Source: an uncultured Gammaproteobacteria bacterium (GTDB taxonomy: Bacteria > Patescibacteriota > Microgenomatia > CAYQLK01). Taken from it: a DNA stretch of 64,000 bases. The notes beneath the pieces are model-generated. The model saw only the letters and a program-made list of their open reading frames with translations. It made no database searches and had not been told where the DNA came from. The position numbers and the translations under genes are program-made. Location of the stretch: positions 131,494-195,493 of the forward strand of contig CAYOLO010000002.1 in NCBI GenBank assembly GCA_964404855.1. The letters run 5' to 3'. Shown one piece after another: positions 5,184 through 63,729 of the stretch (positions within the stretch are counted from its first letter, which is position 1; each line of letters begins with the position of its first letter).

Positions 5184-5228
5184 TTAATTAAAGATTTTTA
5201 AGTTGAACTGAATTAGAATACTATATTT

Positions 5229-6893: not shown

Positions 6894-6897
6894 TTTA

Positions 6898-8568: not shown

Positions 8569-8570
8569 TA

Positions 8571-9170
8571 ATGATAAAAAAACGAAAAAAAATAAACATT
8601 GGTATTGATATCGACGGAATCTTTGTTGACAAACCACCACTGGTTCCAGCAAGGGTAATAAACTATTTGTACAGGAAAACTAATAATAAATCACTGGAAT
8701 ATAAAATACCTTTAAACTATTTTGACAAAAAAATACGAATTATTAGCCATTTAAAGATATTTAGGCCAATTATTAAAAATAATCTTAACTGGCTTAAAGA
8801 AAATTCAAGTAATACAAATATAAATATTTTTATTGTGTCGGGTAGATATTCGTTTTTAGAGAACAGGACAAAAAAATTACTTAAAAATAATGGCATTGTT
8901 CTTAAAAACGAAAGAATTAAGTTAAACACCAAAGACATTCAGCCTCATATTTTTAAAGATCAAATCGTTAAAAATCTGAATATTGACTATATGATTGATG
9001 ATGATATTTTTATGCTGAAGTACTTATCTACACTTAATCCAAATACTACTTTCGTTTGGTATGCTAACTCCCCATATTTTAAGGCTAATTTAAGCTACGA
9101 ATTAAATCACTTTAAAAATTTAATCAAAATTGATGACTTAAAAAATCTGAATCCACTAATAAAACAATGA
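8571..9170 (+). CDS. HAD-like hydrolase / deoxyribonucleotidase-like protein (tentative)
   Basis: N-terminal IGIDIDGIF resembles HAD motif I (DxDGxx). Translationally coupled to its neighbours. Confidence 0.4.
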   Translation: MIKKRKKINIGIDIDGIFVDKPPLVPARVINYLYRKTNNKSLEYKIPLNYFDKKIRIISHLKIFRPIIKNNLNWLKENSSNTNINIFIVSGRYSFLENRTKKLLKNNGIVLKNERIKLNTKDIQPHIFKDQIVKNLNIDYMIDDDIFMLKYLSTLNPNTTFVWYANSPYFKANLSYELNHFKNLIKIDDLKNLNPLIKQ

Positions 9171-11143: not shown

Positions 11144-12419
11144 TAATTAGATCAGAAATTTTTTTCGCTTCTCTTATTGCATAGTTTGTTCCTCTATCAA
11201 ATGGATAGATTTGTGACATAGTACAAAGATAAAGATTTTTTACAGGCGTTTTTTGTGTAGGTATAGATTTGTAATAGTTATTTTCGACAATTGGTTGAGC
11301 GTAAAGCGCGTTAAATTTTGAATAACTTTCAATCCATTTTTCCGAAAATTTTGGATTTATTTTTTTTAGATATGGAATAAATAATTTTAAATTATTTTCT
11401 ATAGAGTTAGTAAATAACTGATTAGTGTGATTTAAATAATTCCCAATATAAAGCACTGATTTGTTTTTGTATGGCTTACGAGGTACAAAGTTTGTATGTT
11501 CAATTAAAACTAAAAATGGAAAATCTTTTTCCATAATATTCAACCAGTAGTAATCCATAAAAGATTTTTTAAGTACCAAATTGAGGGTAGTTGCTGAAAT
11601 CATTTCTTTTAATTTTAAGTTTTTGGCATACTTTGTGTTTTTAATCTCAGGGGTTATTTTTTCAAATACAGAAGGCGGTGTGGTTGCAACGACATAATCA
11701 TATAATTTTGACTTTTGACCAAAGGTGATTTTGATTTTTTTATTTTTAGTTGATTTGATGTTGACTACTGGAGAGTCAAGATAAATGTTTCCGTTATTTT
11801 CTTTAATTTTTGCAACTAGTGATTTAAAAAATATTTCGTACCCACCAGTAAAATATCCCAGCTTGGCTGTTCGTGAGTGAATTCTTGCCCAAAACCAGGA
11901 CATTGATATTTTTTCAGAATAACTACCAAATTTTGCAACAAGTAATGGTTCCCAAACCTTGGTGTAACTTTGTAACCCAAAATATTTGATAATCCAATTT
12001 TTAGCTGTAATATTTTCGAATTTTTTGTAGTTTTTCGTTTTTTTTAAATATGCAGCAACTAATCCGGTTCGGATTCTTGAATAAATACTAATTGGTTTGA
12101 ATTTTAATAAATCAATTGGCGAGGAAAAAGGGAAAATTTTTCCATCAATAAACACACCATCTTTAGATTTTTTAAAATGAAGAGACTTTGATAGCCCTAA
12201 TTCCTGAACTAAACCTCTAAAATATTTATCACTATAAAACATATGGTGAACAAATTTTTCAGTTGGCTTACCTTCAACAGAATAAGATCCCCCTAATCCA
12301 CCGATATCACTACTACTTTCAAAAACATCAACCTTTAATCCTTTTTGTGATAGGTAGTAAGCCGCAGACAGACCACAAGCTCCCGCCCCAATAACTGCGA
12401 CTGATTTAGTTTTTAGCAT
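11133..12419 (-). CDS. FAD-dependent oxidoreductase (amine oxidase / protoporphyrinogen-oxidase-like fold)
   Basis: N-terminal dinucleotide-binding VAVIGAGACGLSAAYYL...DVFESSSDIGG. Confidence 0.7.
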   Translation of the reverse strand: MLKTKSVAVIGAGACGLSAAYYLSQKGLKVDVFESSSDIGGLGGSYSVEGKPTEKFVHHMFYSDKYFRGLVQELGLSKSLHFKKSKDGVFIDGKIFPFSSPIDLLKFKPISIYSRIRTGLVAAYLKKTKNYKKFENITAKNWIIKYFGLQSYTKVWEPLLVAKFGSYSEKISMSWFWARIHSRTAKLGYFTGGYEIFFKSLVAKIKENNGNIYLDSPVVNIKSTKNKKIKITFGQKSKLYDYVVATTPPSVFEKITPEIKNTKYAKNLKLKEMISATTLNLVLKKSFMDYYWLNIMEKDFPFLVLIEHTNFVPRKPYKNKSVLYIGNYLNHTNQLFTNSIENNLKLFIPYLKKINPKFSEKWIESYSKFNALYAQPIVENNYYKSIPTQKTPVKNLYLCTMSQIYPFDRGTNYAIREAKKISDLITNS

Positions 12420-40836: not shown

Positions 40837-40989
40837 ATTAATTTGCTTTTTTTATTTTTTAAAAACTTAATAGGCGAGTTTTATTCTCGCGTAAGGCGAG
40901 ATTTTATACCAGTTAAATATAAAATGCAACCAAGGTAATTATGACTTTTTTGTTTGGCAAAAGCGATGTTAACCAAAAGACAGGCAATG

Positions 40990-41030
40990 AAAAAGGCCGA
41001 CCATCTGAATTAAAGATGACCGGCCTAGGG
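40990..41030 (-). terminator. rho-independent terminator of the 41052..41543 unit (aggccggtcatc/gatggtcggcct stem plus T-run)
   Basis: 12-bp stem with two G-U pairs, followed by TTTTTC on the minus strand, 22 nt after the stop. Confidence 0.45.
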
Positions 41031-41051
41031 AATTGGAGCGAAAGGGCGCTA

Positions 41052-41543
41052 CTAGCCGACAGGTGCGGCGAGGATTTGGTTGGTGAATTCTACTGGAGAG
41101 ACCGCGCGGAACGCGACTCCTCCAGGGTACTTGAGCTCACCGCCGTCAGGTGCTACTCGCATCACGACCATCATCTCGTCTCGAGTGACGATGAACGAGG
41201 CGTGGGCGGCAAGATACTCCGAGCCTACCTCGAAGACCGTGTGTGTGCCGAGTCTGTCGAAGCTGGCGTGGTGCTCACGAAGATATACCATCGAGATGAC
41301 ACCTTCGGTGACGACGACGAACTTCTCGTCTTGGCCGAGTTGCCAGCGAGGGTTGTTGAGATCGTTTTGGATGTTTCGGAAGTCCGAAGAGCTAAGCGCT
41401 CCCCAGCCAATCCGACGGCCGTCAGTGTTGTACCAAACGGCATCAGCGACGACGACCTCGAATCCTGTCCTTTTTTGGCCGAGGACTAAGCCCCCAAAAG
41501 GAGCGCCGAAGTCGCTTTCCGGATCAATGTCCGGATCGATCAT
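41052..41543 (-). CDS. GC-rich hypothetical protein (163 aa), unit 4 of the rpsJ|tuf insertion
   Basis: About 58% GC ORF preceded by a family-type promoter. Its overlapping + strand ORF, 40941..41489, is judged an antisense artefact. Confidence 0.5.
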   Translation of the reverse strand: MIDPDIDPESDFGAPFGGLVLGQKRTGFEVVVADAVWYNTDGRRIGWGALSSSDFRNIQNDLNNPRWQLGQDEKFVVVTEGVISMVYLREHHASFDRLGTHTVFEVGSEYLAAHASFIVTRDEMMVVMRVAPDGGELKYPGGVAFRAVSPVEFTNQILAAPVG

Positions 41544-41640
41544 GCCAGGACTGAGCTTTACGGTAAGAATTGTCTTTCTCCATTTTTAGGGTGCGACTTT
41601 TACGACTGTGGTTTTGCAACCACAGGTCGAAAGTGCGATA

Positions 41641-41670
41641 TTTATATCATTTTTGAAGCTAAATGTCAAA
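41641..41670 (-). promoter_or_regulatory. family promoter copy A (minus strand: tagtaTTTGACA-17-TATAAA)
   Basis: -35 TTGACA (+ 41665-41670 as tgtcaa), 17-nt spacer tttagcttcaaaaatga, -10 at 41641-41646. Confidence 0.55.
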
Positions 41671-41703
41671 TACTAGAGGATACTTTTCTTTTTAAGAAAC
41701 GAG

Positions 41704-41846
41704 GTTTTTCAATTACTTTAATTAGCACATCAAAAATCCCCGCGTGATTTTTGATTCTCACTTTTTGTTCACTCTTTTGCTTGTGCAAAAACCATGCTCG
41801 TTCACAAAAAGAGGTCTAATTAAAGTAATTGAGGGATTAAATGACA
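41704..41846. repeat. conserved ~140-bp intergenic element, copy A
   Basis: About 85-90% identical to copies at 42571-42710 and 43974-44113. Contains hairpin caaaaatc-cccgcgt-gatttttg and stem ttttgc/gcaaaa at 41775-41790. Confidence 0.7.
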
Positions 41847-41854
41847 AAAAAAAA

Positions 41855-41880
41855 GAGCCCTCCTTTTTAGGGGAGGGCTT
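41855..41880 (-). terminator. family terminator hairpin GCCCTCC-TTTTTAGG-GGAGGGC plus T9 (minus-strand sense)
   Basis: 17 nt downstream of the stop of 41897..42415. Identical hairpins at 42745, 61966 and 62648. Confidence 0.7.
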
Positions 41881-41896
41881 GAGGAAAGGACGAGGA

Positions 41897-42415
41897 CTAC
41901 CACGTTGTGAGGGGTGTTCGCCCCGCAGACGCGGCTTGCTCGAATTGCTTTAACGCAAAGCTTTCGTCCGCTTCGGAATCGAAGAAGACTTTGAATTGCT
42001 GGGTTGGAACGTCGAAGTGAACAACCACAAGGCGCGCTTCGGTTTGGGTAAAGCCGCCAACGGCACCTTCGAGCGCATAGTCGACGACTGATCCCAGATT
42101 GAAGGACGCGTAAAGACAGATTGGCCGACTACCGTGTTTGTTAACGTAGTCGACGGCCGCGCCTAGAGCGTGTATATAAGCCTGCTCTGGCCTAAGGATG
42201 TTGATGTCCTCGTAGCGCATAAGTGGCGTACAGTTCTCGACGAGCGTCAGATCGCCGCGATTACTGAACAGCGTGAGATGACGCATACCTTGCGGCAAGA
42301 TGTCGAGGAGGCTGGGTGCTGGCTGGGTCGCATGTGATCCTGTCTTTTTAAGGAACAGAAAAACTGTCACAACAGCTACGACTACCAGACTGGTTACGAC
42401 AAGCGAGATGAACAA
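41897..42415 (-). CDS. GC-rich membrane-anchored hypothetical protein (172 aa), unit 3
   Basis: N-terminal TM (FISLVVTSLVVVAVVTVFLFL) followed by a soluble domain with no recognisable motif. About 56% GC. Confidence 0.55.
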   Translation of the reverse strand: MFISLVVTSLVVVAVVTVFLFLKKTGSHATQPAPSLLDILPQGMRHLTLFSNRGDLTLVENCTPLMRYEDINILRPEQAYIHALGAAVDYVNKHGSRPICLYASFNLGSVVDYALEGAVGGFTQTEARLVVVHFDVPTQQFKVFFDSEADESFALKQFEQAASAGRTPLTTW

Positions 42416-42483
42416 AGCTTATGGGGCTCCTTTTAGCTAAATGTGCTTCTGAGTGAGTTTTTACACTTACCCAATTGTTGTAA

Positions 42484-42511
42484 TTATATCATATTTTGAG
42501 CCTATAGTAAA
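42484..42511 (-). promoter_or_regulatory. family promoter copy C (diverged -35 TTTACT, 16-17 nt spacer, TATAAT)
   Basis: -10 at + 42484-42489 (attata), with spacer ...ctcaaaatatga similar to the other copies. Confidence 0.4.
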
Positions 42512-42570
42512 GAATCTGGTGAAATCTAATTTTAATATTACACAGTAGGGTTTTCTACTTTGTAGAAACA

Positions 42571-42710
42571 GTTTTTTCAATCCCCTTTCTTGGCACGTTC
42601 AAAATCCCTGCGAGATTTTTCTCTTTCACTTTTTGCTCGCTCTTTTGTCTTACAGACAAAAACCATGCCCACTACGCAAAAAGAGATCCAAGAATGAGAA
42701 TTGAGAGATA
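42571..42710. repeat. conserved ~140-bp intergenic element, copy C
   Basis: Same element. The covarying stem here is ttttgtct/agacaaaa (42643-42661). Confidence 0.7.
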
Positions 42711-42744
42711 TGAATTATGAAAATGAAGTCAAGCAAGAAGAAGC

Positions 42745-42772
42745 CCTCCTTTTTAGGGGAGGGCTATGGGCG
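42745..42772 (-). terminator. family terminator hairpin GCCCTCC-TTTTTAGG-GGAGGGC
   Basis: Downstream of the glpX stop (42798). Confidence 0.7.
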
Positions 42773-42797
42773 GATTGGTTTGTGAAGCGAACCGAGA

Positions 42798-43733
42798 CTA
42801 GTTGTCACGATCCCAATTGTGTTCGGTCTCGATCCGGCGAATAGTGCCGGTGAGGCCTCGCATCACGACTGAGTGACTGACCGTCACTCCGTGCGCCAGA
42901 GGCTGGATGCCTTGAAGCATGGTACCGTTGGTCACGCCTGTGGCCGCGAAATATGTATCCTGACTGGACACGAGATCGTCAAGGTTCATGACCCTGTTGG
43001 GGTCAATCCCCTTTTCGAGAATGGCACGCCGTTCTTCATCGCGAGAGATGAATGGCCGGCACTGCATGTCGCCGCGGAGAGCGATGATACCGCAGGCAGC
43101 CGTGACAGCCTCAGGCGACCCACCGCTGCCAAGCAGCATGTGAGCACCTGTGCCTGGCATGCAGGCAACCAGAGCGCCGGCAATGTCGCCGTCGCCAATG
43201 AGGTTGATGCGTGCACCCGCTGCCCGAACAGCTTTGATGATTTCGTTGTTGCGATCCCTTTTGAGGATGGTGACAACGACGCTGTTGACGGGAATGTCGA
43301 GAGCCTTGGCAACCTGCTCGATGTTCCAAGCGACCGGAGCGGTGATGTCGATTTTGCCCTTGGCTTCCTTGCCCACGACAATCTTGTCGAGGTAAAAGAA
43401 GTCACGGACGTCGATCATGGTCCCGCCTGGTGCGGCGGCGATAACAGCGATGGAACCTTCTCGCCCTTCGGAGAGAATGGTCGTCCCGTCGACTGGGTCG
43501 ACAGCAACATCCATCTTGGGTCCATTGCCGTTGCCGACCACTTGGCCGTTGAACAGCATCGGAGCTTCGTCTTTTTCGCCTTCGCCGATTCTGACGATAC
43601 CGTCCATGTCGACCGTGGCAAGCATGGCGTTCATGGCGTCGACGGCGGCTTGGTCGGCACCAATCTTGTCACCAAGACCGAACCAACGGACGGCACCGAG
43701 AGCGGCAGCTTCGGAAACCCGAATGAGCTCCAT
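42798..43733 (-). CDS. glpX: class II fructose-1,6-bisphosphatase (GlpX-type FBPase/SBPase)
   Basis: MELIRVSEAAALGAVRWFGLGDK...DGIVRIGEGEKDEAPML...VDPVDGTT...IGDGDIAGAL...LLGSGGSPEAV is colinear with GlpX. The ORF-track start at 43916 lies upstream of this unit's own promoter, so the start was set to the conserved MELIRV Met. About 58% GC. Confidence 0.8.
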   Translation of the reverse strand: MELIRVSEAAALGAVRWFGLGDKIGADQAAVDAMNAMLATVDMDGIVRIGEGEKDEAPMLFNGQVVGNGNGPKMDVAVDPVDGTTILSEGREGSIAVIAAAPGGTMIDVRDFFYLDKIVVGKEAKGKIDITAPVAWNIEQVAKALDIPVNSVVVTILKRDRNNEIIKAVRAAGARINLIGDGDIAGALVACMPGTGAHMLLGSGGSPEAVTAACGIIALRGDMQCRPFISRDEERRAILEKGIDPNRVMNLDDLVSSQDTYFAATGVTNGTMLQGIQPLAHGVTVSHSVVMRGLTGTIRRIETEHNWDRDN

Positions 43734-43887
43734 CCCGATATTGCGATCGGGCGTGGGAGTGTAGTTCCTGACCTTGAGTGGTCCGGAAGGGATGACGAGG
43801 GTTTGTGCCGATGTAATGGGTTTGGTTCTCCTTCTCCAAATAAATGAGCTGTAACGGACGTCCGTAACGGTTGTCCAAAACGGCGAA

Positions 43888-43916
43888 ATCTTACCACTTT
43901 TGAAGCTGTATGTCAA
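43888..43916 (-). promoter_or_regulatory. family promoter copy B (tagtaTTTGACA-17-TAAGAT)
   Basis: -35 at + 43911-43916 (tgtcaa), spacer tacagcttcaaaagtgg, -10 at 43888-43893. Confidence 0.5.
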
Positions 43917-43973
43917 ATACTACGGGCCTAAATAATAGTTATTTTGGAAAATATTAGTTTTTAATTACAAATT

Positions 43974-44113
43974 GTTTTCAATCCACTTTCTTGGCACACC
44001 AAAAATCCCAGCGTGATTTTTGTTTTTCACTTTTTGTTTGTTCTTTTGCTTGTTAAGCAAAAACCATGCCCACTCACAAAAAGAGATCCAAGAAAGTAAA
44101 TTGAGGGATAGTG
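43974..44113. repeat. conserved ~140-bp intergenic element, copy B
   Basis: Same element. The covarying stem here is tttgctt/aagcaaa (44044-44062). Confidence 0.7.
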
Positions 44114-44151
44114 AAAAAACAGATAGGAAGTTTGGAGTATTAAAGACAAGA

Positions 44152-44180
44152 AAAAGCCCTCGGGGTGAGCCGAGGGCTGG
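44152..44180 (-). terminator. family terminator variant GCCCTCGG-GGTGAGC-CGAGGGC plus T-run
   Basis: Immediately downstream of the stop at 44204. Same outer stem as the main family. Confidence 0.6.
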
Positions 44181-44203
44181 GGGGTGAACTTGGGAGGTGT
44201 TGG

Positions 44204-44716
44204 CTAGGCCAACGCGAGACTGGCGCGACGCATCAGCGAGACGACGTCGCCGCCTTGGGGCATGCCTTCTTCGAAGCGCTCGATGGCGTCGCAGTAGGGT
44301 TTGTCGGCGAGATACTCGTCGGTATGGATCCGCATCAAAAACGGAACGATTTCCGTGATGGCGGAGCTGTTGCCGTGGACTACTTCGCCTCCCCGCTTGT
44401 GGCGGAAGAAGAACGAATAACCAATGGTCAGCTCGGTTTCGAGCAGCCACTCGTCGGTCTCGAGGTCGGAAACGTGGAGCCTGCCGGTCTTGACGGACTC
44501 ATTACGGTTAATGAGCACGCCGTTCTCGGTCAGGAGATACATGTTGCCGCTTCGGCTGGTAAGCAGAACGGCGTTGAACTTGTCCCCACCGAGGAGCATT
44601 GCACCTTCACTGAACATGTCGCTCAGCCTGAAGACCCTGTCCGAATTGGCTCGGTCGATCCGATGGGCAAGGTGGTTACCCTTAACCTGGACCAGAATTG
44701 CTTCGGCGCTAGCCAA
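44204..44716 (-). CDS. GC-rich hypothetical protein (170 aa), unit 1
   Basis: TTG start with AGAGG RBS. No recognisable motif. The overlapping + strand ORF 44165..44746 is judged an antisense artefact. Confidence 0.5.
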   Translation of the reverse strand: MASAEAILVQVKGNHLAHRIDRANSDRVFRLSDMFSEGAMLLGGDKFNAVLLTSRSGNMYLLTENGVLINRNESVKTGRLHVSDLETDEWLLETELTIGYSFFFRHKRGGEVVHGNSSAITEIVPFLMRIHTDEYLADKPYCDAIERFEEGMPQGGDVVSLMRRASLALA

Positions 44717-44751
44717 AGTGTCTACACCTCTTTCTTAATGTTCTAAGGTAT

Positions 44752-44780
44752 ATTATACCATATTATAGGCTTATTTTCAA
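44752..44780 (-). promoter_or_regulatory. sigma70-type promoter for unit 1 (TTGAAA-17-TATAAT, minus strand)
   Basis: + strand tttcaa at 44775-44780 and attata at 44752-44757. Confidence 0.45.
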
Positions 44781-44802
44781 TTCTGATTAAATGAAAATGG
44801 TC

Positions 44803-50396: not shown

Positions 50397-50420
50397 GCCC
50401 CCGGGGGTTAGCCGAGGGCG
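50397..50420 (-). terminator. family terminator variant GCCCCCGG-GGGTTAG-CCGAGGGC
   Basis: Downstream of the stop at 50448. Same arm sequence as the variant at 44152. Confidence 0.5.
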
Positions 50421-50447
50421 AATAAAGGGTGGTGGCAAAAGCTGTGG

Positions 50448-50993
50448 CTAGTTGCCCAGCCAGCTGCCGTGTGTGCCGATGATCTGCGTACCGTCGCGGA
50501 ACACGACCATGTCGTGGCTCGCACTAAAAATCCGCTTGCGCTGATCCTTGACTTCCAGCTTGAGGACCCAGCCGTTGAAGGACTGGGCCTGGACGTAGAC
50601 TCGGACCTGGCCGATCGGATTGGTCCTGATGTACTTCAGCCGATTGTTGATGATCTTGGTCGCGTCGAAGTTGACGACTTGGGCGCTGGCCAGGGTCATT
50701 TTTTCGAGGCTTGCAAGAAGAGTCTCCTCTGCAACGTTGGCATTGTCTACCTTAGCCATCTCCTCGCGGAATTTGGCAATGGCAAGCTCAAGCGGTTGGT
50801 CTTGGAGGTCAATGGCGAGGGTGGAGAAGATCGTCAGGACGACTGTCCTGTCTGCGTACGCGGCTTCAACAAGCCGAGTCAGCGTCCTCACACCGTGAGT
50901 ACGTCCGACGACCTCAAACATATACGGAAGCTGAAGTCCGTATGGAATGAGATCTTCGACCGAAGGGTATATTGTCCTTTTTTTGCGGGGCAA
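50448..50993 (-). CDS. GC-rich hypothetical protein (181 aa) directly downstream of fusA
   Basis: About 57% GC. TTG start with AGGAAG RBS. No recognisable motif. The + strand ORFs 50469..51029 and 50620..50898 are antisense artefacts. Confidence 0.5.
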   Translation of the reverse strand: MPRKKRTIYPSVEDLIPYGLQLPYMFEVVGRTHGVRTLTRLVEAAYADRTVVLTIFSTLAIDLQDQPLELAIAKFREEMAKVDNANVAEETLLASLEKMTLASAQVVNFDATKIINNRLKYIRTNPIGQVRVYVQAQSFNGWVLKLEVKDQRKRIFSASHDMVVFRDGTQIIGTHGSWLGN

Positions 50994-51028
50994 ACTTCAC
51001 TTCCTTTTTCAGGTGCGATTTACAGCTA

Positions 51029-51057
51029 ATTATAACCTATAATAATGTAAATTGCAA
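51029..51057 (-). promoter_or_regulatory. sigma70-type promoter for the 50448..50993 unit (TTGCAA-17-TATAAT)
   Basis: + strand attata at 51029-51034 and ttgcaa at 51052-51057. Sits between the fusA stop and the GC-rich ORF. Confidence 0.45.
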
Positions 51058-51072
51058 TTATGTAGGAGGAGG

Positions 51073-57100: not shown

Positions 57101-57869
57101 ATGCGACACCGAGATAATCGAGTGTTAAGTAGTCTTCCTCGGAAAGCAGGTTGAGGGGCTTGACTGAGGACATTAATTTCTCGAGCTTTTTGTACTTTTC
57201 TTCGATTTTGGCGAGTTCAATGCTGTGTGCATCACGAAGCAAAGCAATTTTGTGACGAGAAGCTAATTCCATCTCTTCGACTTTGAGGTCGAGATTGCTT
57301 TTTTCTTTAGTTTTTTTGACTTCTTTTACCTCTGCTTCGGATTCTTTTTTGACTGCACCGATTTGTTCTTCAAGAACCTTGACAGCCGAAGCGATTTCTT
57401 TTTCCTGAAGAGTTTTGAGTTTTTCTATGTCTTCTTTGCGCTTCTCAGGATCAAGGGAAATAACAATATAACTAGCAAAATAAATGACTGCATCAAGACT
57501 GCGCGGAGAAATATCCAGTAGTAAGCCGAGTTTGCTGGGCGCACCACGGAAGAACCAACTGTGAACGACAGGAGCTGAAAGAGACAAGTGCCCCATTCTT
57601 TCGCGGCGGACGCGTGCCTGAGTTACTTCAACGCCACATTTTTCACAAATAATACCGCGGAATCTGATCCTCTTGTATTTACCACAGTAACATTCCCAGT
57701 CTTTGACTGGTCCAAAAATACGCTCATCAAAAAGACCATCCTTCTCTGGTTTGAGGGTACGATAGTTGATGGTTTCCGGTTTGGTAATCTCTCCATGAGA
57801 CCATTCTTTGATATTTTCCGGTGAAGCTAGAGTGATTTTTAGTGCTTTGAAATCAAGCAGGGCTTTCAT
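54171..57869 (-). CDS. rpoC: DNA-directed RNA polymerase subunit beta'
   Basis: Zn finger CYCGKYKRIRFRGIICEKCGVEV and NADFDGDQMAVH catalytic motif. Confidence 0.95.
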   Translation of the reverse strand: MKALLDFKALKITLASPENIKEWSHGEITKPETINYRTLKPEKDGLFDERIFGPVKDWECYCGKYKRIRFRGIICEKCGVEVTQARVRRERMGHLSLSAPVVHSWFFRGAPSKLGLLLDISPRSLDAVIYFASYIVISLDPEKRKEDIEKLKTLQEKEIASAVKVLEEQIGAVKKESEAEVKEVKKTKEKSNLDLKVEEMELASRHKIALLRDAHSIELAKIEEKYKKLEKLMSSVKPLNLLSEEDYLTLDYLGVASFLKVGMGSEAIKTILENIDLDALVTDLRKELTEVSGIKHIKAAKRLRVAEGMRKADIDPTWMVLTVLPVLPPDLRPMVQLSGGRFATSDLNDLYRRVINRNNRLKKLIDLGAPEIILRNEKRMLQEAVDALIDTNSRSTTTRTTQAELRSLSDMLRGKQGRFRQNLLGKRVDYSGRSVIVVGPELDLDQVGIPKEMALEMFKPFVLRDLIGLGLAPNVKSAKHVLEKRPPEVWDILEEITREHPVLINRAPTLHKLGIQAFYPVLIEGDAIRIHPCICAGFNADFDGDQMAVHVPLSSDAQAEARRLMMASQNILRPADGTPITIPNKEMALGAYYITSIDEDAQPVDTIFVDSEEAIFAWQNGKIGMRQPIKVRMEDKVVETTVGRINFNRMLPDKIPFLNETFRNSTIKSTISAHLENLTEEELLKLIDNVKNIGFRFATVSGLSVSVFDNEIVPEKDEIIAEADKRVDEIEKKFDDGLITEAEKRRLTNDIWTETTDVVYQKTWAAIKNDNSVKMISDSGGSRASSDQIKQLSGMKGLVQDPSGKIVPLPTKSNFRQGLSVFEYFTSSRGARKGLADRALRTAESGYLTRRLVDVSHDVIIRQLDCGTKEGITVFKTDPARRAAFENRIIGMVLAKDVKGVAKAGDLLDLTTAKKVADSADEIIVRSPLTCEATIGLCALCYGRDTSTRKLVEIGTPVGVIAAQSIGEPGTQLTMRTFHTGGIVGTDITQGLPRVEELLEARTPKVSAPIAEITGKVTVDETAEGFVITIKGSEKPVTEKQYLLPLTEDLNITTGDTIKAGEPLSKGHLDVKEILRVKGLREAQKYIADEAQSVYEAQGVPIDDKHFEVIIRKMSEKVKITSSGDTKFLPGEHIAKHVYEYENAKTIAEGGEPATAELVILGITRASLYTESFLSAASFQETTNVLTQAASEGKVDPLLGMKENVIIGRLIPTSVDRAIVDNIPAEGEVDAA

Positions 57870-60800
57870 TATTTGTCTTCTCCTTCTTTTTCATCCTCGT
57901 CCGAGGAAGTACTTTCTTCTAGTTCGGTGAGTTCAGCTTCTGCCTCGGCGTCTTCAGCCGATTCGTCTTCAGTAATTTCGTTTTCTGCTTCGACACTCTT
58001 GATGTCAGGAACGATTTCGGAAAGAATTTCTTCTTCAGCGACATCGGCTTTGGCTTCGACTTTTTCTTCGGGTTTGCCGTCTTCGGATTTGTCTGACTCG
58101 TCAATGATCGTAGCACCTAAAGCTTCGACATTGAGTGAAAGCGATTGAAGTTCTTTGACAAGGACTTTGAATGATTCCGGAATTTGAGGAGTTGGAATAT
58201 CGGTTCCTTTGACTATAGCTTCGAATGCTTTTGGTCGGCCGACAATGTCGTCGGACTTAATCGTTAACATTTCCTGAAGGATGTGGGCGGCACCGTAAGC
58301 TTCGAGAGCCCAAACCTCCATTTCTCCAAGACGCTGTCCACCCATTTGAGCTTTACCACCGAGTGGCTGCTGAGTAATGAGTGAGTAGGGTCCGGTAGAA
58401 CGTGCGTGAGTCTTGTCCTCAACCATGTGGATAAGTTTGAGAATATAACTAGTTCCGACAACGATCGGACGATCGAATGCTTCACCCGTGCGGCCGTCGT
58501 AGAGAGTAGTTTTACCGTTGACCGGCAGACCGGCTTTGCCAAACTGTTCGACAATGACATCCTCGTCAACCTCTTCGAATACAGGAAGGGCTACTTTGTA
58601 ACCGAGTTTTTCGGCACTAACTCCAAGGTGGGCCTCCATCAATTGGCCAAGGTTCATACGAGCAAGAACAGACAAAGGACTAATGATGATATCAACAGGC
58701 TTGCCTTCTGCTGTGTGTGGCATATCAGCTTCGGGAACAATCTTTGAGATGACACCTTTGTTTCCGTGGCGACCACAAAGTTTGTCTCCAACAACGACTT
58801 TGCGCATTTGAGCAATTTTGACGGTAATCTTTTTGATCGCACCAGGCTCCAATTCGTCACCGGCGGCACGTGATAAGACTTTGATTCCGATAACGGTACC
58901 GCGCTCACCGTGAGGAACTCTCAAGGAAGTATCTCTGACCTCGCGGGCTTTTTCACCAAAAATTGCGCGTAGCAGACGCTCCTCAGCAGTAAGCTCGGTC
59001 TCACCTTTTGGAGCAATTTTTCCAACAAGAATATCGTTAGGTCCGACTTCTGCACCGATAACAATAACTCCGTCTTCGTCGAGGTTGGCTAGATCTTCTT
59101 CAGAAACGTTTGGGATATCGCGTGTGGTCTCTTCTGGTCCGAGCTTGGTGTCAACAACAACTGCGGTGTGTTCTTCGATGTGAACAGAGGTCAAAAGATC
59201 ACTCTTAACGAGGCGGTCGGAAATAACAATAGCGTCTTCGTACCCCAAACCGTCGTAACTCATGTAAGCAATGGTTAGGTTCTGTCCGAGTGCTAATTCT
59301 CCGCCCTCTGAAGCTGGACCATCAACCAGAACATCGCCTGCTTTGAAGCTGTCGCCGGTATAAACAAATGGTCTCTGTGAGTAACAAGTAGATTGCTGCG
59401 AACGAACGAATTTTTTGATCGGGTAGGTAACCAGCTCTTTTTCGCCAGCGTAGCGAACTACGACTTTGTTGGCGTCAGCGAATTCGACTTTACCGTCTTT
59501 TTCGGCGGTAATAACCCGACCCATTGTTACCGAAACTGGATTTTCCATACCTGTACCAATAATCGGTGAGTGAGGGATAAGAAGCGGTACTGCCTGACAC
59601 TGCATGTGTGTACCCATCAAAGCACGGTTAGCATCGTCGTGGCTAAGGAATGGAATAAGCGAAGCTGATGTACCAATGATCTGGCGAGGAATAATATCGA
59701 TATAGTCTACGTCGGTAGCTAGTGCGGTAGTGAATTCACCCATGTGGCGAACCGGAACACGGTTTTCGACGATTGTACCGTCTTTTGCTAGCTCTATTTC
59801 TGAATGAGTGATGATGGCTTCATCCTCGTCGTCAGCAGTGATATAAACGATTTCGTCGGTTACGACAGCCTTGTCGCCTTTTTTGACCACTTTGCGATAA
59901 GGTGCTTCGATAAAACCTAATTCGTTGATACGGGCATAAAGAGCAAGATAGGTAACCAGACCAATGTTCGGACCTTCAGGACTTCTGACTGGGCAAATAC
60001 GTGAATACTGCGAGGAGTTGATATCGCGAATCGAGAAAGCTGCTCTTTCACGGGTAATACCGCCCGTACCCATAACTGACAGTCTGCGCATTGTGTCAAC
60101 TTCGGCCAGAGGATTAGTCTGATCAAGAATTGTTGCCAACTGCGAAGTGCGGAAGAATTCGTTAATTGCAGACATAACAGGTCGGGCATTAACTAACGTA
60201 GCTGGTGTTGGTGGAATTTCCGGATTAGCTGTGGTCATTCTTTCGCGAATAACGCGCTCAAGACGAAGAATACCGACACGGAAGGCGTTCTGCTGAGTCA
60301 GTTCACCAACTGAGCGTACGCGGCGGTTACCAAGATGGTCAATGTCATCAACGCGGCCTTTGTTAAAACTCAGACCAATTAGGTAAGCAATTGAAGCAAG
60401 AAGGTCGGTTTTGTTGAGAATAAGAGGATTAGAATCTTCTGAATCAGCGGATTTGACTAGCGGTTTGATGTCTTTGAGCTTGCGGTCCATTTTGTAACGG
60501 CCGACTTCGGCGAGGTTGTAACGACGATCATTGAAGAACATTCCTTCAACCATAGCTCTGGCTGTATCGAGAACCAGAGGATCGCCGGGTCGCATACGGC
60601 GGTATATTTCCAGCAGAGCTTCGTCGGAGTTGGTAGTTGTGTCTTTTGCCAGGGTATTGTGAATAAAAGCCATCTCTTCTTCAGGTAAGAATTTGAAAGC
60701 TTCGATTATCTGTTCATCACTGCTGAGTCCGATCGCGCGCAAAAAGGTAGTAACCGGGAATTTGCGGCGGCGGTCGATTTTGACATTGATCGTGTCGGTA

Positions 60801-61318
60801 CGACTAAGTGAAAATTCGAGCCAGGAACCTCTAAGCGGACGAACCTCGGCTGTGTAGAGGATTTTTCCGGTACCGGGATCCATAGCTGCGGAGTAATAAA
60901 CACCAGGAGCTCGAACTAGCTGATGAACAATTGCACGCTCAACACCATTGACAATGAAAGTACCGCGTTCAAGCATTAGAGGGATATCACAGAGGAATAC
61001 TTCCTGATTGATTGTCTCTTCGGTTTGTTTGTTTGTGAGTTTGGCCTGAACTTTGAGTGGTGCGTCGTAGGTAAGGCCCTTTTCTACTGCTTCTTCCGGG
61101 GTAATGGCCGGCTTGCCAAGTGTTAATTTGGAGAATTCCAGTCGATAGTTCTTGCCGGTAACATCCTCGATAGGGCTGATCTCGCGGATAACTTCTTCTA
61201 GACCCGTGTCTAGGAATTTCTGGAATGATGTCTTGTGGATTTTGAGCAGATCAAGATTAGGAAGGTTGGGTGTCTGACGACCCCAATAAAGACGTGTTTT
61301 GTAATTTGTTTCAGCCAT
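57869..61318 (-). CDS. rpoB: DNA-directed RNA polymerase subunit beta (acidic C-terminal tail)
   Basis: Colinear with bacterial RpoB. Ends in ...SSDEDEKEGEDK. Its stop overlaps the rpoC start. Confidence 0.95.
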   Translation of the reverse strand: MAETNYKTRLYWGRQTPNLPNLDLLKIHKTSFQKFLDTGLEEVIREISPIEDVTGKNYRLEFSKLTLGKPAITPEEAVEKGLTYDAPLKVQAKLTNKQTEETINQEVFLCDIPLMLERGTFIVNGVERAIVHQLVRAPGVYYSAAMDPGTGKILYTAEVRPLRGSWLEFSLSRTDTINVKIDRRRKFPVTTFLRAIGLSSDEQIIEAFKFLPEEEMAFIHNTLAKDTTTNSDEALLEIYRRMRPGDPLVLDTARAMVEGMFFNDRRYNLAEVGRYKMDRKLKDIKPLVKSADSEDSNPLILNKTDLLASIAYLIGLSFNKGRVDDIDHLGNRRVRSVGELTQQNAFRVGILRLERVIRERMTTANPEIPPTPATLVNARPVMSAINEFFRTSQLATILDQTNPLAEVDTMRRLSVMGTGGITRERAAFSIRDINSSQYSRICPVRSPEGPNIGLVTYLALYARINELGFIEAPYRKVVKKGDKAVVTDEIVYITADDEDEAIITHSEIELAKDGTIVENRVPVRHMGEFTTALATDVDYIDIIPRQIIGTSASLIPFLSHDDANRALMGTHMQCQAVPLLIPHSPIIGTGMENPVSVTMGRVITAEKDGKVEFADANKVVVRYAGEKELVTYPIKKFVRSQQSTCYSQRPFVYTGDSFKAGDVLVDGPASEGGELALGQNLTIAYMSYDGLGYEDAIVISDRLVKSDLLTSVHIEEHTAVVVDTKLGPEETTRDIPNVSEEDLANLDEDGVIVIGAEVGPNDILVGKIAPKGETELTAEERLLRAIFGEKAREVRDTSLRVPHGERGTVIGIKVLSRAAGDELEPGAIKKITVKIAQMRKVVVGDKLCGRHGNKGVISKIVPEADMPHTAEGKPVDIIISPLSVLARMNLGQLMEAHLGVSAEKLGYKVALPVFEEVDEDVIVEQFGKAGLPVNGKTTLYDGRTGEAFDRPIVVGTSYILKLIHMVEDKTHARSTGPYSLITQQPLGGKAQMGGQRLGEMEVWALEAYGAAHILQEMLTIKSDDIVGRPKAFEAIVKGTDIPTPQIPESFKVLVKELQSLSLNVEALGATIIDESDKSEDGKPEEKVEAKADVAEEEILSEIVPDIKSVEAENEITEDESAEDAEAEAELTELEESTSSDEDEKEGEDK

Positions 61319-61635
61319 ACAAAGTAACTTTTTTAGTATAAAAAGATTCAGGCAGCACGAACAATATTTATATGTATAAAGGATTTCCTAGTTACCCGAG
61401 CCCTATTGCGAGGCGCAACCAAATAGAGTTGCTTTTGATGCTCAAATCTTTCAGACAAAAGACCACAAAACCACAGGAATTACTCCCCTGCTGTCAAGTG
61501 GTTAAGGGCAAATATATACGTATTTGCTGAATGTGTCAATAGTCTTTTTTATAGTTTCTTTTTAAAAAACAATTATTATATTTCCCTCTTCACTTTTTGA
61601 TGACTGGCAGTTTGTGTATTACCGGCCACTCATCA

Positions 61636-61707
61636 AGCTAGATTTTCAGATTTAGAAATCACTTGTTGTGTTGATTTGTATTTTATTTTTAAGGAATATC
61701 TGAAAAT
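61636..61707. repeat. 12-bp perfect inverted repeat (agattttcagat / atctgaaaatct) separated by 48 nt in the rpoB leader region
   Basis: Exact reverse-complement segments at 61636-61647 and 61696-61707. Confidence 0.5.
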
Positions 61708-61766
61708 CTAAAGCCGTTCAGAGGAAAATGTGATCAGTTTATGAGGAGCTTATTTTCTCCTTTTTC

Positions 61767-61928
61767 TTATGGCTTTTTTAGTTTTTTTAAGAAAAAGCCC
61801 CGTGGGTTGAGCACGGGGCGGGGTGTGGATTGGTCAGCCTGCCAAGGCAACAAAGTAGAGCACAGAATACGACCGCGCGCCCTATCGGGTTTATCGGACA
61901 TGTTCCAGAACGCCCTTGAACAGGTCAT
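61767..61928 (-). other. GC-rich ~150-nt transcription unit: candidate sRNA or 53-aa ORF (MTCSRAFWNMSDKPDRARG...), its 3' end spanning the 61796-61830 terminator
   Basis: Minus-strand -10 TATAAT at + 61948-61953, GC-rich segment 61830-61945, then hairpin gccccgtg-ctcaaccc-acggggc plus TTTTTCTT. The ORF reads through the terminator hairpin. Confidence 0.3.
61796..61830 (-). terminator. rho-independent terminator (gccccgtg/cacggggc stem plus T-run)
   Basis: Hairpin followed by tttttctt on the minus strand. Confidence 0.5.
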
Positions 61929-61965
61929 CCACACCAGGTAATTATATTACCGCTGGTCAAATAAT

Positions 61966-61993
61966 AAAAAACCCTCCTTTTTAGGGGAGGGCT
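61966..61993 (-). terminator. family terminator hairpin (A)CCCTCC-TTTTTAGG-GGAGGG(T) plus T-run
   Basis: 18 nt downstream of the stop at 62011. Confidence 0.65.
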
Positions 61994-62010
61994 AAGAGGG
62001 TCGGAAGTTC

Positions 62011-62475
62011 CTACAGAGGGAGCGCCACCTTGCGTTCCCGCCGGTGTCGGACTCGGGTAAGAGCCGCGGCGATACCGTTGCGGATCGCCTGGAGCGGGGC
62101 GCGATGGCCGACCAGCTGCATCTTATCGTCGATGGTTTCCATGACCAGCTCGGCCTGCTCGGGGTCGAGCATGAAGCCGTTTTTGGGGTACCGCGGTTTG
62201 GGGGTAAAAACTCCCGGACCGCCGTACTCGAGCAGCTGAACTTCGACTCCGGCAGCTTCGTAGCCGTCGAGGGCGCCGACGTAGAGGTCGAGCGGTCCAT
62301 CGCAGTGCAATGCGATAACCTGGTCTCCTGTCATGGCAACCGCGTCCTCGAATGCGCGACGGTAAGCCTCCTCGTACGCTTGCTCCAGGTGGGTATCAGA
62401 CCGCCTGGCAAAGAGGTATCTGTCGACATTGTCGGGACTGAACGTCCGACTATGTACGTCGGGCAGAGGCGGCAT
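62011..62475 (-). CDS. GC-rich hypothetical protein (154 aa)
   Basis: About 62% GC. The ORF-track start (62634) lies upstream of this unit's own promoter (62532-62560), so the start was moved to the first ATG downstream of the TSS (MPPLPDV). No recognisable motif. Confidence 0.5.
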   Translation of the reverse strand: MPPLPDVHSRTFSPDNVDRYLFARRSDTHLEQAYEEAYRRAFEDAVAMTGDQVIALHCDGPLDLYVGALDGYEAAGVEVQLLEYGGPGVFTPKPRYPKNGFMLDPEQAELVMETIDDKMQLVGHRAPLQAIRNGIAAALTRVRHRRERKVALPL

Positions 62476-62531
62476 CACACAGATGATTCTCAAGTTTCTG
62501 TTTGAACTCCTTTTGGTAATGAACTGAGGCG

Positions 62532-62560
62532 AATTATACTTGTTTTTAGATAAAAAATCA
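62532..62560 (-). promoter_or_regulatory. family promoter copy D (ctagtaTTTGATT-17-TATAAT)
   Basis: + strand attata at 62532-62537 and aatcaa at 62555-62560. Confidence 0.5.
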
Positions 62561-62647
62561 AATACTAGAGGATAGTCTGACACATATTTAATTATTTTTT
62601 GAAAGGGATTTGTAGACTCTAGCTTTTTTGCCAAACCAGCAAAATAA

Positions 62648-62678
62648 AAGCCCTCCTTTTTAGGGGAGGGCTAGGGCG
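62648..62678 (-). terminator. family terminator hairpin GCCCTCC-TTTTTAGG-GGAGGGC
   Basis: 13 nt downstream of the stop of the 56-aa ORF. Confidence 0.65.
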
Positions 62679-62690
62679 GGAAGCTGAAGA

Positions 62691-62861
62691 TCACCTCAAC
62701 TCGTTGCAGATCACGGCGAACGAATCGCCGATCAGAGGAATACTGCTCTGGCATTCCTGAGCGACATTCGGACGCTCGGGCAGACCGATGAGACTGATTG
62801 CGACCAGCGCGATCGTAATGGCGACCAGAGTGGTTCCGAAAACACGGGTCAAGTTGGCCAT
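62691..62861 (-). CDS. GC-rich 56-aa single-TM peptide (MANLTRVFGTTLVAITIALVAISLIGLPERPNVAQECQSSIPLIGDSFAVICNELR)
   Basis: AAGGAG RBS 9 nt upstream of ATG, family promoter 47 nt upstream, family terminator downstream. Not in the ORF track (size). Confidence 0.5.
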   Translation of the reverse strand: MANLTRVFGTTLVAITIALVAISLIGLPERPNVAQECQSSIPLIGDSFAVICNELR

Positions 62862-62912
62862 GAACAAGGTCGTTTTCTCCTTAGAGGTAGTTGGTAATGT
62901 TCAGTGGAGACA

Positions 62913-62941
62913 ATTATACCGCATTTTAGGCAAAAAATCAA
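62913..62941 (-). promoter_or_regulatory. family promoter copy E (atagtaTTTGATT-17-TATAAT)
   Basis: + strand attata at 62913-62918 and aatcaa at 62936-62941. Confidence 0.5.
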
Positions 62942-63021
62942 ATACTATAGGGCTTAAATAGTACATGGGAAAAAATTTATAATGGACTTATGATGGATTG
63001 GACTGGCACTTCAGGTGTATA

Positions 63022-63729
63022 ATGCCTCAGGCAAAAATCATGACATTAATAATTACAGTTATCGAAAAAGACCATATTTGGCAATCGTCTGACCATCGGA
63101 TTACAAAAATTAACGGTGATCTGTTTGACGATAAGTCGATCAAACATATTCACCTGAACTGCACAGACGGAAAAGCACTTTTGTCCTGGACTGGACTGGC
63201 CGAACTCAAAGACAAAACCAGACTGAACGTTTGGCTTAAAGATGTGCTTAAAGCCGGAGTTGGAACGGTAGATGAGACGCTGAAGACAATTACGGATCGG
63301 GCAAGTACAGATATTGGCGGAAGTTTTGAATTAGTGGTGAGTGTCGGCGCTTTTATTAATGACCAGCCTTGGTATTATGAAATAACTAATTTAGTTGAAG
63401 ATAAGGGTAAGGCGAAGTTAAAAAATAAATTCACAATCAAAAAAACCAAAGCGGACAAGGATGGATTGTTCCATGGCGGAAGCGGTAAGATCGGTTTGAC
63501 CCAGAAGGACATTAATGCAATTAAAAAAGAGGCAAAAAAGGCTACAGGTGACCCTGATCAATTTTCTAAGACTTTGGCAAATATCAACAAAAAGGTGTCG
63601 GGAAACGTAAAGACCGTAAGCCCGAGCTGTACGACCGCATATATCACGTCAGTCGGCGGAATTACTACCGAGATCCACTCTAACGAGGATCAGGACGATT
63701 ATGTTTATATCGTCCCGACGTCGGTATAA
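63022..63729 (+). CDS. hypothetical protein (~235 aa), divergently transcribed from unit E
   Basis: ORF-track ORF 62998..63729. An extended -10 (gTGtaTAATg) overlaps the ORF-track start, so the start was moved to an internal ATG. No recognisable motif. Confidence 0.45.
   Translation: MPQAKIMTLIITVIEKDHIWQSSDHRITKINGDLFDDKSIKHIHLNCTDGKALLSWTGLAELKDKTRLNVWLKDVLKAGVGTVDETLKTITDRASTDIGGSFELVVSVGAFINDQPWYYEITNLVEDKGKAKLKNKFTIKKTKADKDGLFHGGSGKIGLTQKDINAIKKEAKKATGDPDQFSKTLANINKKVSGNVKTVSPSCTTAYITSVGGITTEIHSNEDQDDYVYIVPTSV

Follow-up and report, generated by a model that had tools for sequence, protein, structure and literature searches.

The DNA described here is a 64,000-nt stretch of contig CAYOLO010000002.1 (positions 131,494 to 195,493; assembly GCA_964404855.1), called the window below. 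On its minus strand, directly upstream of rpoB and in the same orientation, lie three small units, each of which ends in an intrinsic terminator (Table 1). Reading towards rpoB, these are a gene for a small membrane peptide (ORF56), a gene for a longer GC-rich protein (ORF160) and a third unit, which is best read as a non-coding RNA gene, probably a new small RNA (sRNA). Related loci and assemblies, labelled L001 to L034, were used for comparison. In the probable reading, a Saccharibacteria chromosome carries here a variable array of insulated cassettes, each with a single gene, and the locus is the end of that array nearest to rpoB.

A scan of the minus strand for promoters and terminators returned exactly two sigma70-type promoters (TTGATT-17-TATAAT) and three terminators at the cassettes, and so recovers both promoters and all the terminators that the first-pass annotation had assigned to the peptide and to the longer open reading frame (ORF). 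The three terminators have 8-bp stems (the expectation is 2.1 for the region, both strands) and show the elements of Rho-independent termination, namely a GC-rich stem of at least 5 bp, a loop of 3-8 nt and then a T-run. The 22-nt core of the family terminator, CCCTCCTTTTTAGGGGAGGGCT, occurs four times in the window and in none of 100 shuffles. Its other two copies belong to a second array, between tuf and rpsJ, which has the same promoter module. The promoter module of the peptide cassette recurs at the ORF160 cassette, at 41640-41679 and in relatives, with the consensus TAGTATTTGAY, 17 nt and TATAAT (the spacer is often TTTAGCCTYAAA). The shared terminator consists of the stem GCCCTCC/GGAGGGC and a T-run. 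The same promoter and terminator motifs were found in nine related loci, and they are 90-100% identical across genomes whose ORF160 DNA is only ~67% identical. An AAGGAG ribosome-binding site precedes ORF56, for which it had been proposed, and also ORF160. At the sequence level both protein cassettes have their own promoter, one ORF and their own terminator, and the earlier proposal is supported that the GC-rich segments form three autonomous units, with promoters and terminators of one family that is also found at other loci of the window.

ORF56 encodes 56 residues from the ATG codon or 58 from the TTG codon upstream. The peptide consists of an N-terminal hydrophobic helix (a 20-residue segment) and a C-terminal tail of ~30 residues with two invariant cysteines and an IPLIG motif; the single transmembrane segment predicted initially is thus borne out and conserved. 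By the positive-inside rule the topology would be N-in/C-out, with the two-cysteine tail outside the cytoplasm. In five further lineages (L002, L006-8, L010, L015) the peptide is conserved at 59-75% amino acid identity. Between lineages, the proportions of nonsynonymous and synonymous differences (pN and pS) are 0.14-0.27 and 0.52-0.63, respectively, and the G+C content of third codon positions (GC3) is 0.65-0.70. A wider homologue search returned only the query itself and one homologue of 75% identity. ORF56 is a real coding gene under purifying selection, found in one Saccharibacteria lineage only and there always in the interval ahead of rpoB.

ORF160 had been described as a 154-residue GC-rich orphan. 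The GC-rich unit with its promoter and terminator stands, and the length does not: the relatives begin at the codon homologous to TTG 62493 (MRxICV), so that the product is most likely of 160 residues, and a database entry of 160 residues is 100% identical to it. The label of orphan holds only in so far as no family was found outside the lineage, since eight homologues of 62-68% identity are present among 5.8 billion proteins, all in the same lineage and at the same locus (the interval between the PGA_cap gene, with mltG, ruvX and sortase genes ahead of it, and rpoB). Their alignment contains 55 invariant residues, His, Cys and Asp positions among them. Across four lineages pS is 0.65-0.78 (saturated), while pN is 0.24-0.31 and dN/dS is ~0.1-0.2; G+C contents of the three codon positions are 0.71/0.41/0.73. 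Saturated pS together with low pN indicates minus-strand coding under purifying selection, and ORF160 is coding and selected. The product is predicted to be soluble. Neither ORF160 nor ORF56 matches Pfam, NCBIfam, PHROGs or PADLOC. A profile search of ORF160 against 1.84 billion representative proteins found its own cluster and a weak, repeat-level resemblance to the FG-GAP repeats of a 3,562-residue protein, which was judged uninformative. The AlphaFold model is poor (predicted local distance difference test score, pLDDT, 54.5), and Foldseek found nothing below E = 0.26 in the PDB. The homology search proposed for both products thus leads to homologues in their own lineage and to no known family.

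The third unit had been described as a ~150-nt GC-rich segment with its own -10 box and a terminator overlapping the end of its only ORF, and both an sRNA and a small gene had been considered. The overlap is present, and the TATAAT box at 61946-61941, located 6-7 nt ahead of a conserved GUGGAUG, is invariant in all four sRNA sequence types. Of the two proposals the sRNA is upheld and the gene is not. ORFs of 55 (minus strand) and 66 residues (plus strand) can be read in the window, and in L006-8, L013 and the L002 type both are interrupted by in-frame stops or can be read only with a change of frame. No ribosome-binding site is present, and the G+C contents by codon position (0.45/0.52/0.59) have no coding pattern. 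The stretch 61993-61788 is 80-86% identical to relatives, compared with only ~67% for the adjacent ORF160 DNA, and the ~112-nt core reaches 83-94%. Taken together, the lack of coding potential, the high conservation of the DNA and the terminator argue for a non-coding unit. All copies end in a terminator; in L013 this is a hairpin of the GCCCTCC family instead of the GCCCCGTG hairpin, which suggests that the function has been kept although the sequence has not.

The predicted fold of the sRNA comprises an 8-bp closing helix (GUGUGGAU/AUCCACAC), a 10-bp interrupted helix (CCUG/CAGG, then YYAAGG/CYUUGG) and a 7-bp inner hairpin (GGGCG/YGCYC). In the alignment, 98% of the cells of these helices can pair, and pairing falls to 32-43% when the 3' partners are slid by 1-3 columns. 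One compensatory change and six wobble-type changes are observed, and they preserve pairing only on the minus strand. The sRNA matches none of the 4,227 families of Rfam 15, and relaxed scans gave no credible match at E <= 10 for the window and none at E <= 5 for L002; the only match in the window at the gathering threshold is a tRNA-Pro. Identity with the signal recognition particle (SRP) RNA or 6S RNA was rejected: there is no Rfam match, and the conserved SRP domain IV motif was absent on inspection by eye. A pattern scan of metagenomes gave two further copies of the L002 type, its other four matches being due to chance, and a covariance model detected no diverged copies in 35 loci. The search for targets gave no meaningful complementarity to the neighbouring mRNAs or to the rpoB leader.

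The order and content of the cassettes differ among nine mapped genomes (f numbers denote further cassette families). In the window and in L024, the order is f6, f13, (ORF243, on the opposite strand), ORF56, ORF160, sRNA and rpoB. In L006 it is ORF56, a D element (a structured repeat described below), ORF160, f15, f7, sRNA and rpoB; in L002 it is ORF160, sRNA, D, ORF56, f7, f32, D and rpoB; and in L010 it is ORF160, (ORF243), f15, f7, ORF56 and rpoB. L012 and L013 are devoid of ORF56 and carry f23, and the sRNA is missing from L010 and L012. The comparison of the region upstream of rpoB in relatives, suggested at the outset, thus shows the same families with shuffled order and content. The units had been described as inserted material; in the sense of a recent insertion this is not supported, as the same cassette families are present in the PGA_cap-to-rpoB interval of synonymously saturated lineages and are long-standing residents.

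Whole cassettes are also present or absent between near-identical strains. L031, whose flanks are 100% identical to the window, has one more unit, inserted after the ORF160 terminator and ahead of the sRNA (L031 1078-1385) and composed of a promoter, a gene for a 62-residue single-transmembrane two-cysteine peptide (family f7) and a terminator. The terminator repeat GGAGGGTTTTT is found on both sides of the extra segment, and the junction lies inside this repeat, at the ORF160 terminator. L025, which is 96.6% identical to the window, has one cassette more, located past the sRNA and ahead of the rpoB promoter (L025 7079-7983) and consisting of a gene for an AT-rich 213-residue membrane protein and a D element, in place of the spacer of the window. 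The distances between ORF160 alleles are star-like, every pair having a pN of 0.24-0.31 and the window and L006 still one of ~0.25, whereas those of the neighbouring gene ORF243 are graded (pN 0.04-0.32 overall; 0.04 between the window and L006, and 0.30-0.32 to L010). This contrast suggests that cassette alleles have been replaced and were not inherited in a strictly vertical manner.

The GC-richness noted at first sight is confirmed by both G+C content and GC3: 0.61 and 0.73 for ORF160, and 0.56 and 0.70 for ORF56. The GC3 of rpoB, rpoC, tuf and fusA is 0.39-0.43, and for genes within the window's first 22 kb it is 0.22-0.27; against the neighbours (0.39-0.45) the composition of the two cassettes (0.70-0.73) is atypical. 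ORF160 and ORF56 keep a GC3 of 0.65-0.73 in every lineage, and rpoB and ORF243 one of 0.31-0.51, while the pS of rpoB among the compared genomes (0.56-0.66) is at or near synonymous saturation. For the cassettes overall, GC3 is 0.65-0.8 across synonymously saturated lineages. The exception is f32 (L002, L025), with a GC3 of ~0.25, which is followed by a D element and has no family terminator. A bias acting on the whole locus, or GC-biased gene conversion, was rejected as the cause because f32 belongs to the same array. The stable GC-richness of the cassettes might be due to selection on particular genes or to their repeated replacement from pools that differ in composition. A compositional outlier in the opposite direction is an AT-rich block at ~4200-12400 (G+C 0.27-0.30, GC3 0.22-0.25), which encodes two PMT_2-type glycosyltransferases, a DUF2298 membrane protein and an amine-oxidase-like flavoprotein.

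The array between tuf and rpsJ contains four cassettes of the same design, encoding proteins of 170 residues, GlpX, 172 and 163 residues, with the family terminator after each and a D element after three of them. It is syntenic in relatives, in which GlpX is 80-94% identical at the same site. GlpX is the only cassette product of a known family (the best solved-structure match is 6ayy_A, 'Fructose-1,6-bisphosphatase class 2'); its next-best matches are 58-63% identical, and those with a named source are from Chloroflexota. An origin of the cassettes from the actinobacterial host was considered and rejected, as GlpX points to Chloroflexota outside the relatives, and ORF160 and ORF56 are without outside homologues. 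A single GC-rich cassette (181 residues, GC3 0.71) is found directly after fusA, with a TTGCAA-17-TATAAT promoter and the variant terminator GCCCTCGGCTAACCCCCGGGGGC.

The D element is an AT-rich repeat of ~135 nt located after cassette terminators or, in L025, directly after the stop codon. The RNAalifold consensus of seven copies has 43 pairs, 18 of them with compensatory changes; many G-U pairs work on the cassette strand only, and there are invariant unpaired blocks, e.g. GGGCAYGGTTTTT. No Rfam match was found. The D element is probably an undescribed structured RNA, or an element resembling miniature inverted-repeat transposable elements (MITEs), tied to cassette arrays. A search of 2.9 million viral contigs for the D element, the sRNA and the promoter module gave a single match (L034), which was due to chance. 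The exact family terminator AGCCCTCCCCTAAAAAGGAGGGCT does occur directly after the major head protein gene of a phage contig (L020, IMGVR_UViG_3300037483_000162; 7393-8345), which also carries a GC-rich helix-turn-helix-like ORF at 504-953 and may represent a phage of this Saccharibacteria lineage.

In the case of rpoB, a near-consensus promoter (TTGACA-17-TATATT, 61539-61511, 11 of 12 matches) is situated ~190 nt upstream of the start codon. The promoter and the ~185-nt 5' untranslated region (UTR) are kept in relatives; the UTR is 76-83% conserved across lineages and shows long invariant blocks, e.g. GTCTGAAAGATTTGAGCAT, and predicted hairpins. A relaxed Rfam scan gave no match. The region is a candidate cis-regulatory leader of rpoBC. 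It had been taken as part of an AT-rich leader of ~450 nt, which resolves into a lineage-specific spacer (~245 nt, found only in the window species, with L024, L026-L028 and L031, and without counterpart in other lineages), followed by the separate promoter and the shorter leader. The absence of rplKAJL upstream of rpoB was read correctly from the window, and as the genes are absent there in every relative examined, this is a feature of the lineage. The 3' end of rpoB (57869-58200) encodes an acidic low-complexity C-terminal extension of ~110 residues rich in E, D and K. The divergent neighbour ORF243 (229 residues from ATG 63040, listed as 243) has normal G+C content and is conserved at 79-94% in close lineages and ~50% in L010. 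Seven of the nine mapped loci contain it, and in an eighth (L012) it lies at the edge of the contig; no library scanned gave a family match.

Table 1. Coordinates of the features of the rpoB-proximal array, its neighbours and the sister loci (positions in the window unless a related locus is named).
Feature	Position	Strand	Description
Promoter module, peptide cassette	62913-62951	minus	CCTATAGTA; -35 TTGATT 62941-62936, 17-nt spacer, -10 TATAAT 62918-62913
ORF56, small membrane peptide (56 or 58 residues)	62691-62867	minus	AAGGAG 62882-62877; TTG 62867 or ATG 62861
Family intrinsic terminator, peptide cassette	62641-62672	minus	AGCCCTCCCCTAAAAAGGAGGGCT, then T-run; hairpin 62672-62649
Promoter module, ORF160 cassette	62533-62571	minus	CCTCTAGTA; TTGATT-17-TATAAT (62561-62533)
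ORF160	62011-62493	minus	AAGGAG 62512-62507; most likely start TTG 62493
Family intrinsic terminator, ORF160 cassette	61962-61993	minus	AGCCCTCCCCTAAAAAGGAGGGTT, then T-run; hairpin 61993-61970
-10 box TATAAT, sRNA unit	61941-61946	minus	conserved in the alignment of four sequence types
Candidate structured sRNA core, ~112 nt	61823-61934	minus	conservation, helices, covariance model
Terminator, sRNA unit	61790-61819	minus	GCCCCGTGCTCAACCCACGGGGC, then T-run; hairpin 61819-61797; differs from the family terminator
AT-rich spacer	61545-61789	minus	window species only
rpoB promoter and conserved ~185-nt 5' leader	61319-61539	minus	boundary of the array, not a member of it
rpoB	57869-61318	minus	
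ORF243	63040-63729	plus	divergent neighbour
tuf-rpsJ array	40900-44800		four cassettes
fusA-adjacent cassette	50400-51060		single cassette
D element copies, window	41706-41837, 42574-42709, 43975-44109	minus	repeat family
D element copies, relatives	L002 10700-10896, 12278-12366; L006 4992-5114; L025 7772-7905		

In the explanation that we consider probable, each protein cassette of the array would consist of the shared sigma70-type promoter, a short 5' UTR with AAGGAG, one ORF and the shared terminator. The window would hold three such insulated units: the 56/58-residue peptide, the 160-residue protein, and the ~112-nt sRNA transcribed from a -10-only promoter. All cassettes are oriented as rpoBC; their terminators would stop read-through, and rpoB would start from its own promoter and leader. 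The units would be expressed strongly and constitutively. Recombination at the repeated modules, promoters and terminators alike, would add, remove and rearrange cassettes, as suggested by the L031 junction, the order map, the recA gene encoded in the window and the natural competence of the phylum (PMC10633639). The products may be accessory envelope or host-interaction factors, a role hinted at by the variable content of the array and by the small membrane peptides ORF56, f7 and f23.

Several points weigh against this explanation. The promoters and terminators are predicted from sequence and conservation, as is the sRNA. Some cassettes of the array are neither GC-rich nor equipped with the family modules (f32 of L002 and L025). 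As to the proposed recombination, inspection at base level covered a single indel junction, and repeats of ~11-24 nt are short for RecA-dependent exchange. The function searches listed above (Pfam, NCBIfam, PHROGs, PADLOC, profile and fold) were negative for the products of this locus. Covariation in the sRNA is weak, the alignment being limited to four distinct sequences and the observed score being reached by 110 of 500 shuffles. A canonical -35 box was looked for ahead of the sRNA and not found, so the RNA would come from a -10-only promoter or be processed from read-through transcripts.

A more far-reaching version, which we regard as rather doubtful, is a recombinase-free cassette system in which the standard modules would serve as expression signals and recombination joints at once, the pool of cassettes would keep its own base composition over long evolutionary periods and supply a diversifying repertoire for the envelope or host interaction, and the array would include two undescribed classes of structured RNA, the sRNA and the D element. 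If it were true, single genes (for small surface peptides, orphan proteins or an sRNA) could be reordered, and swapped between strains, at a few sites beside the most conserved operons. We found no published description of such cassettes in Saccharibacteria.

Among the alternatives, the recent acquisition of foreign DNA, as prophage remnants or phage-delivered morons from a GC-rich donor whose composition has not yet drifted, is unlikely, though it accounts for several observations. The promoter-ORF-terminator design with atypical G+C content agrees with the definition of morons (PMC3594210), the identical family terminator follows the head gene of the phage contig, the nearest relatives of GlpX outside the lineage are from Chloroflexota, and whole cassettes come and go between near-identical strains. 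Phage genes, however, flank the locus in none of the nine genomes, ORF160 and ORF56 have no homologue outside the lineage in the collection of 5.8 billion proteins, and the viral contigs are devoid of the promoter module, the sRNA and the D element. Undrifted foreign DNA was rejected as the cause of the GC-richness in particular, because the same families in the same interval retain their GC3 in lineages at or near synonymous saturation.

Control of rpoB in cis by the third GC-rich unit, as a leader or riboswitch acting via its terminator, is very unlikely. The structured domain of the unit and the terminator directly after it, upstream of rpoB on the same strand, would suit this role, but the element located downstream varies: rpoB itself in the window and L006, a D element and the ORF56 cassette in L002, and the ORF160 cassette in L013, and these two cassettes have promoters of their own. 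Moreover, the promoter of rpoB is found downstream of the unit, the unit is missing in L010 and L012, and no Rfam family was matched.

A type I toxin-antitoxin pair, with the peptide as hydrophobic toxin and the sRNA as RNA antitoxin, is highly unlikely. A hydrophobic peptide of ~56 residues and an sRNA are indeed encoded less than 1 kb apart, and both have a promoter and a terminator of their own, but the linked complementary antitoxin RNA is lacking: the peptide gene and the sRNA neither overlap nor are antisense, the duplex energy of the sRNA with the 5' region of the ORF56 mRNA is no better than for shuffles (z = -0.8), and there is no complementary stretch of at least 10 nt to either neighbouring cassette. 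The two are also separable, as only the peptide is present in L010 and, in the interval sampled, only the sRNA in L013, and the conserved two-cysteine tail was judged atypical of type I toxins.

An integron-like system, in which a site-specific recombinase captures and shuffles cassettes at structured sites, is hardly credible, even though the tandem co-oriented single-gene cassettes for mostly orphan small proteins, their variation in order and content between strains, and the structured D element between some of them are reminiscent of one. No recombinase was found when 20 non-ribosomal window ORFs (157 residues or longer; 1093-24197) were scanned with Pfam, or in the gene tables of relatives. 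Integron cassettes are promoterless, whereas here a TTGAY-17-TATAAT promoter precedes each cassette, and the repeats are 24-nt terminator hairpins and not attC sites of 57-141 bp. Nor does the D element, which begins and ends with TCAATT...AATTGA, agree with the R''/R' cores RYYYAAC/GTTRRRY; attC identity was rejected for the terminators and the D element alike.

A small protein gene at 61790-61945, with the terminator inside its coding sequence, is extremely improbable: the two ORFs that would speak for it are broken in relatives although the DNA is 83-94% identical, and neither a ribosome-binding site nor a codon-position pattern is present. The last alternative, in which GC-rich foreign DNA was joined to the contig through misassembly or contamination, was named beforehand as a way to overturn the feature and would explain the sharp jump in base composition, but it is excluded by seven independent assemblies from other samples (L024, L026, L027, L028, L030, L032, L033) that carry the segment at 98.3-99.7% identity, four of them (L024, L026, L027, L028) running on into rpoB, as well as by diverged relatives with the same architecture; L001 is 100% identical over 1,018 nt.

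The feature is real, reproducible and evolutionarily maintained, a variation on the gene-cassette or moron theme in a little-studied phylum, with a probable new sRNA. The genomes of Saccharibacteria, which live as obligate epibionts, are very small, and a known function is lacking for most genes specific to their lineages. A compact array with strong signals and rapid reshuffling beside rpoBC and the ribosomal operons is a place in which host-interaction and envelope factors could be sought. The shared modules suggest a simple form of gene flux without a dedicated recombinase in a competent phylum, and cassettes of GC3 0.65-0.8 beside native genes of 0.3-0.45, with one cassette of 0.25, present a compositional puzzle. 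The promoter, ribosome-binding site and terminator modules are also candidate expression parts for the emerging genetic tools of Patescibacteria.

Phage morons are independent promoter-gene-terminator units in phage and prophage genomes (PMC3594210). The cassettes are like them in having one gene each, framed by a promoter and an intrinsic terminator of its own, a position between co-oriented backbone genes, an atypical composition, presence or absence between close relatives and accessory or unknown functions. They differ in their location, as they are found in junctions of core operons (rpoB, tuf-rpsJ, fusA), in tandem and with one promoter and terminator family, stay in the same interval across saturated lineages and include an sRNA; the neighbours in all relatives are rpoB and the PGA_cap, mltG, ruvX and sortase genes, and the cassette proteins have no PHROG match. 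With integron arrays they share the co-oriented tandem arrangement of single-gene cassettes, the small orphan proteins and the shuffling between strains. In contrast to integrons, no intI was found in the scanned window ORFs and the Pfam tables of related loci, attC sites and a common promoter Pc are absent, each cassette has a promoter, a ribosome-binding site and a terminator, and the junctions are terminator hairpins. The sRNA resembles stand-alone bacterial sRNA genes in its conserved -10 box, ~112-nt structured core, terminator hairpin with U-run and stronger conservation than the flanking coding DNA; it differs in lacking an Rfam family, a -35 box and a detected target, and in being a movable member of an array.

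Flexible islands that are exchanged by homologous recombination in competent bacteria, such as the minimal mobile elements of Neisseria, offer a further comparison. Variable content between housekeeping genes, no dedicated recombinase, a competent phylum and the presence of recA are common to both. The difference is that here the array itself is modular, built with internal repeats of the promoter and terminator modules, and at least one indel junction lies in them.

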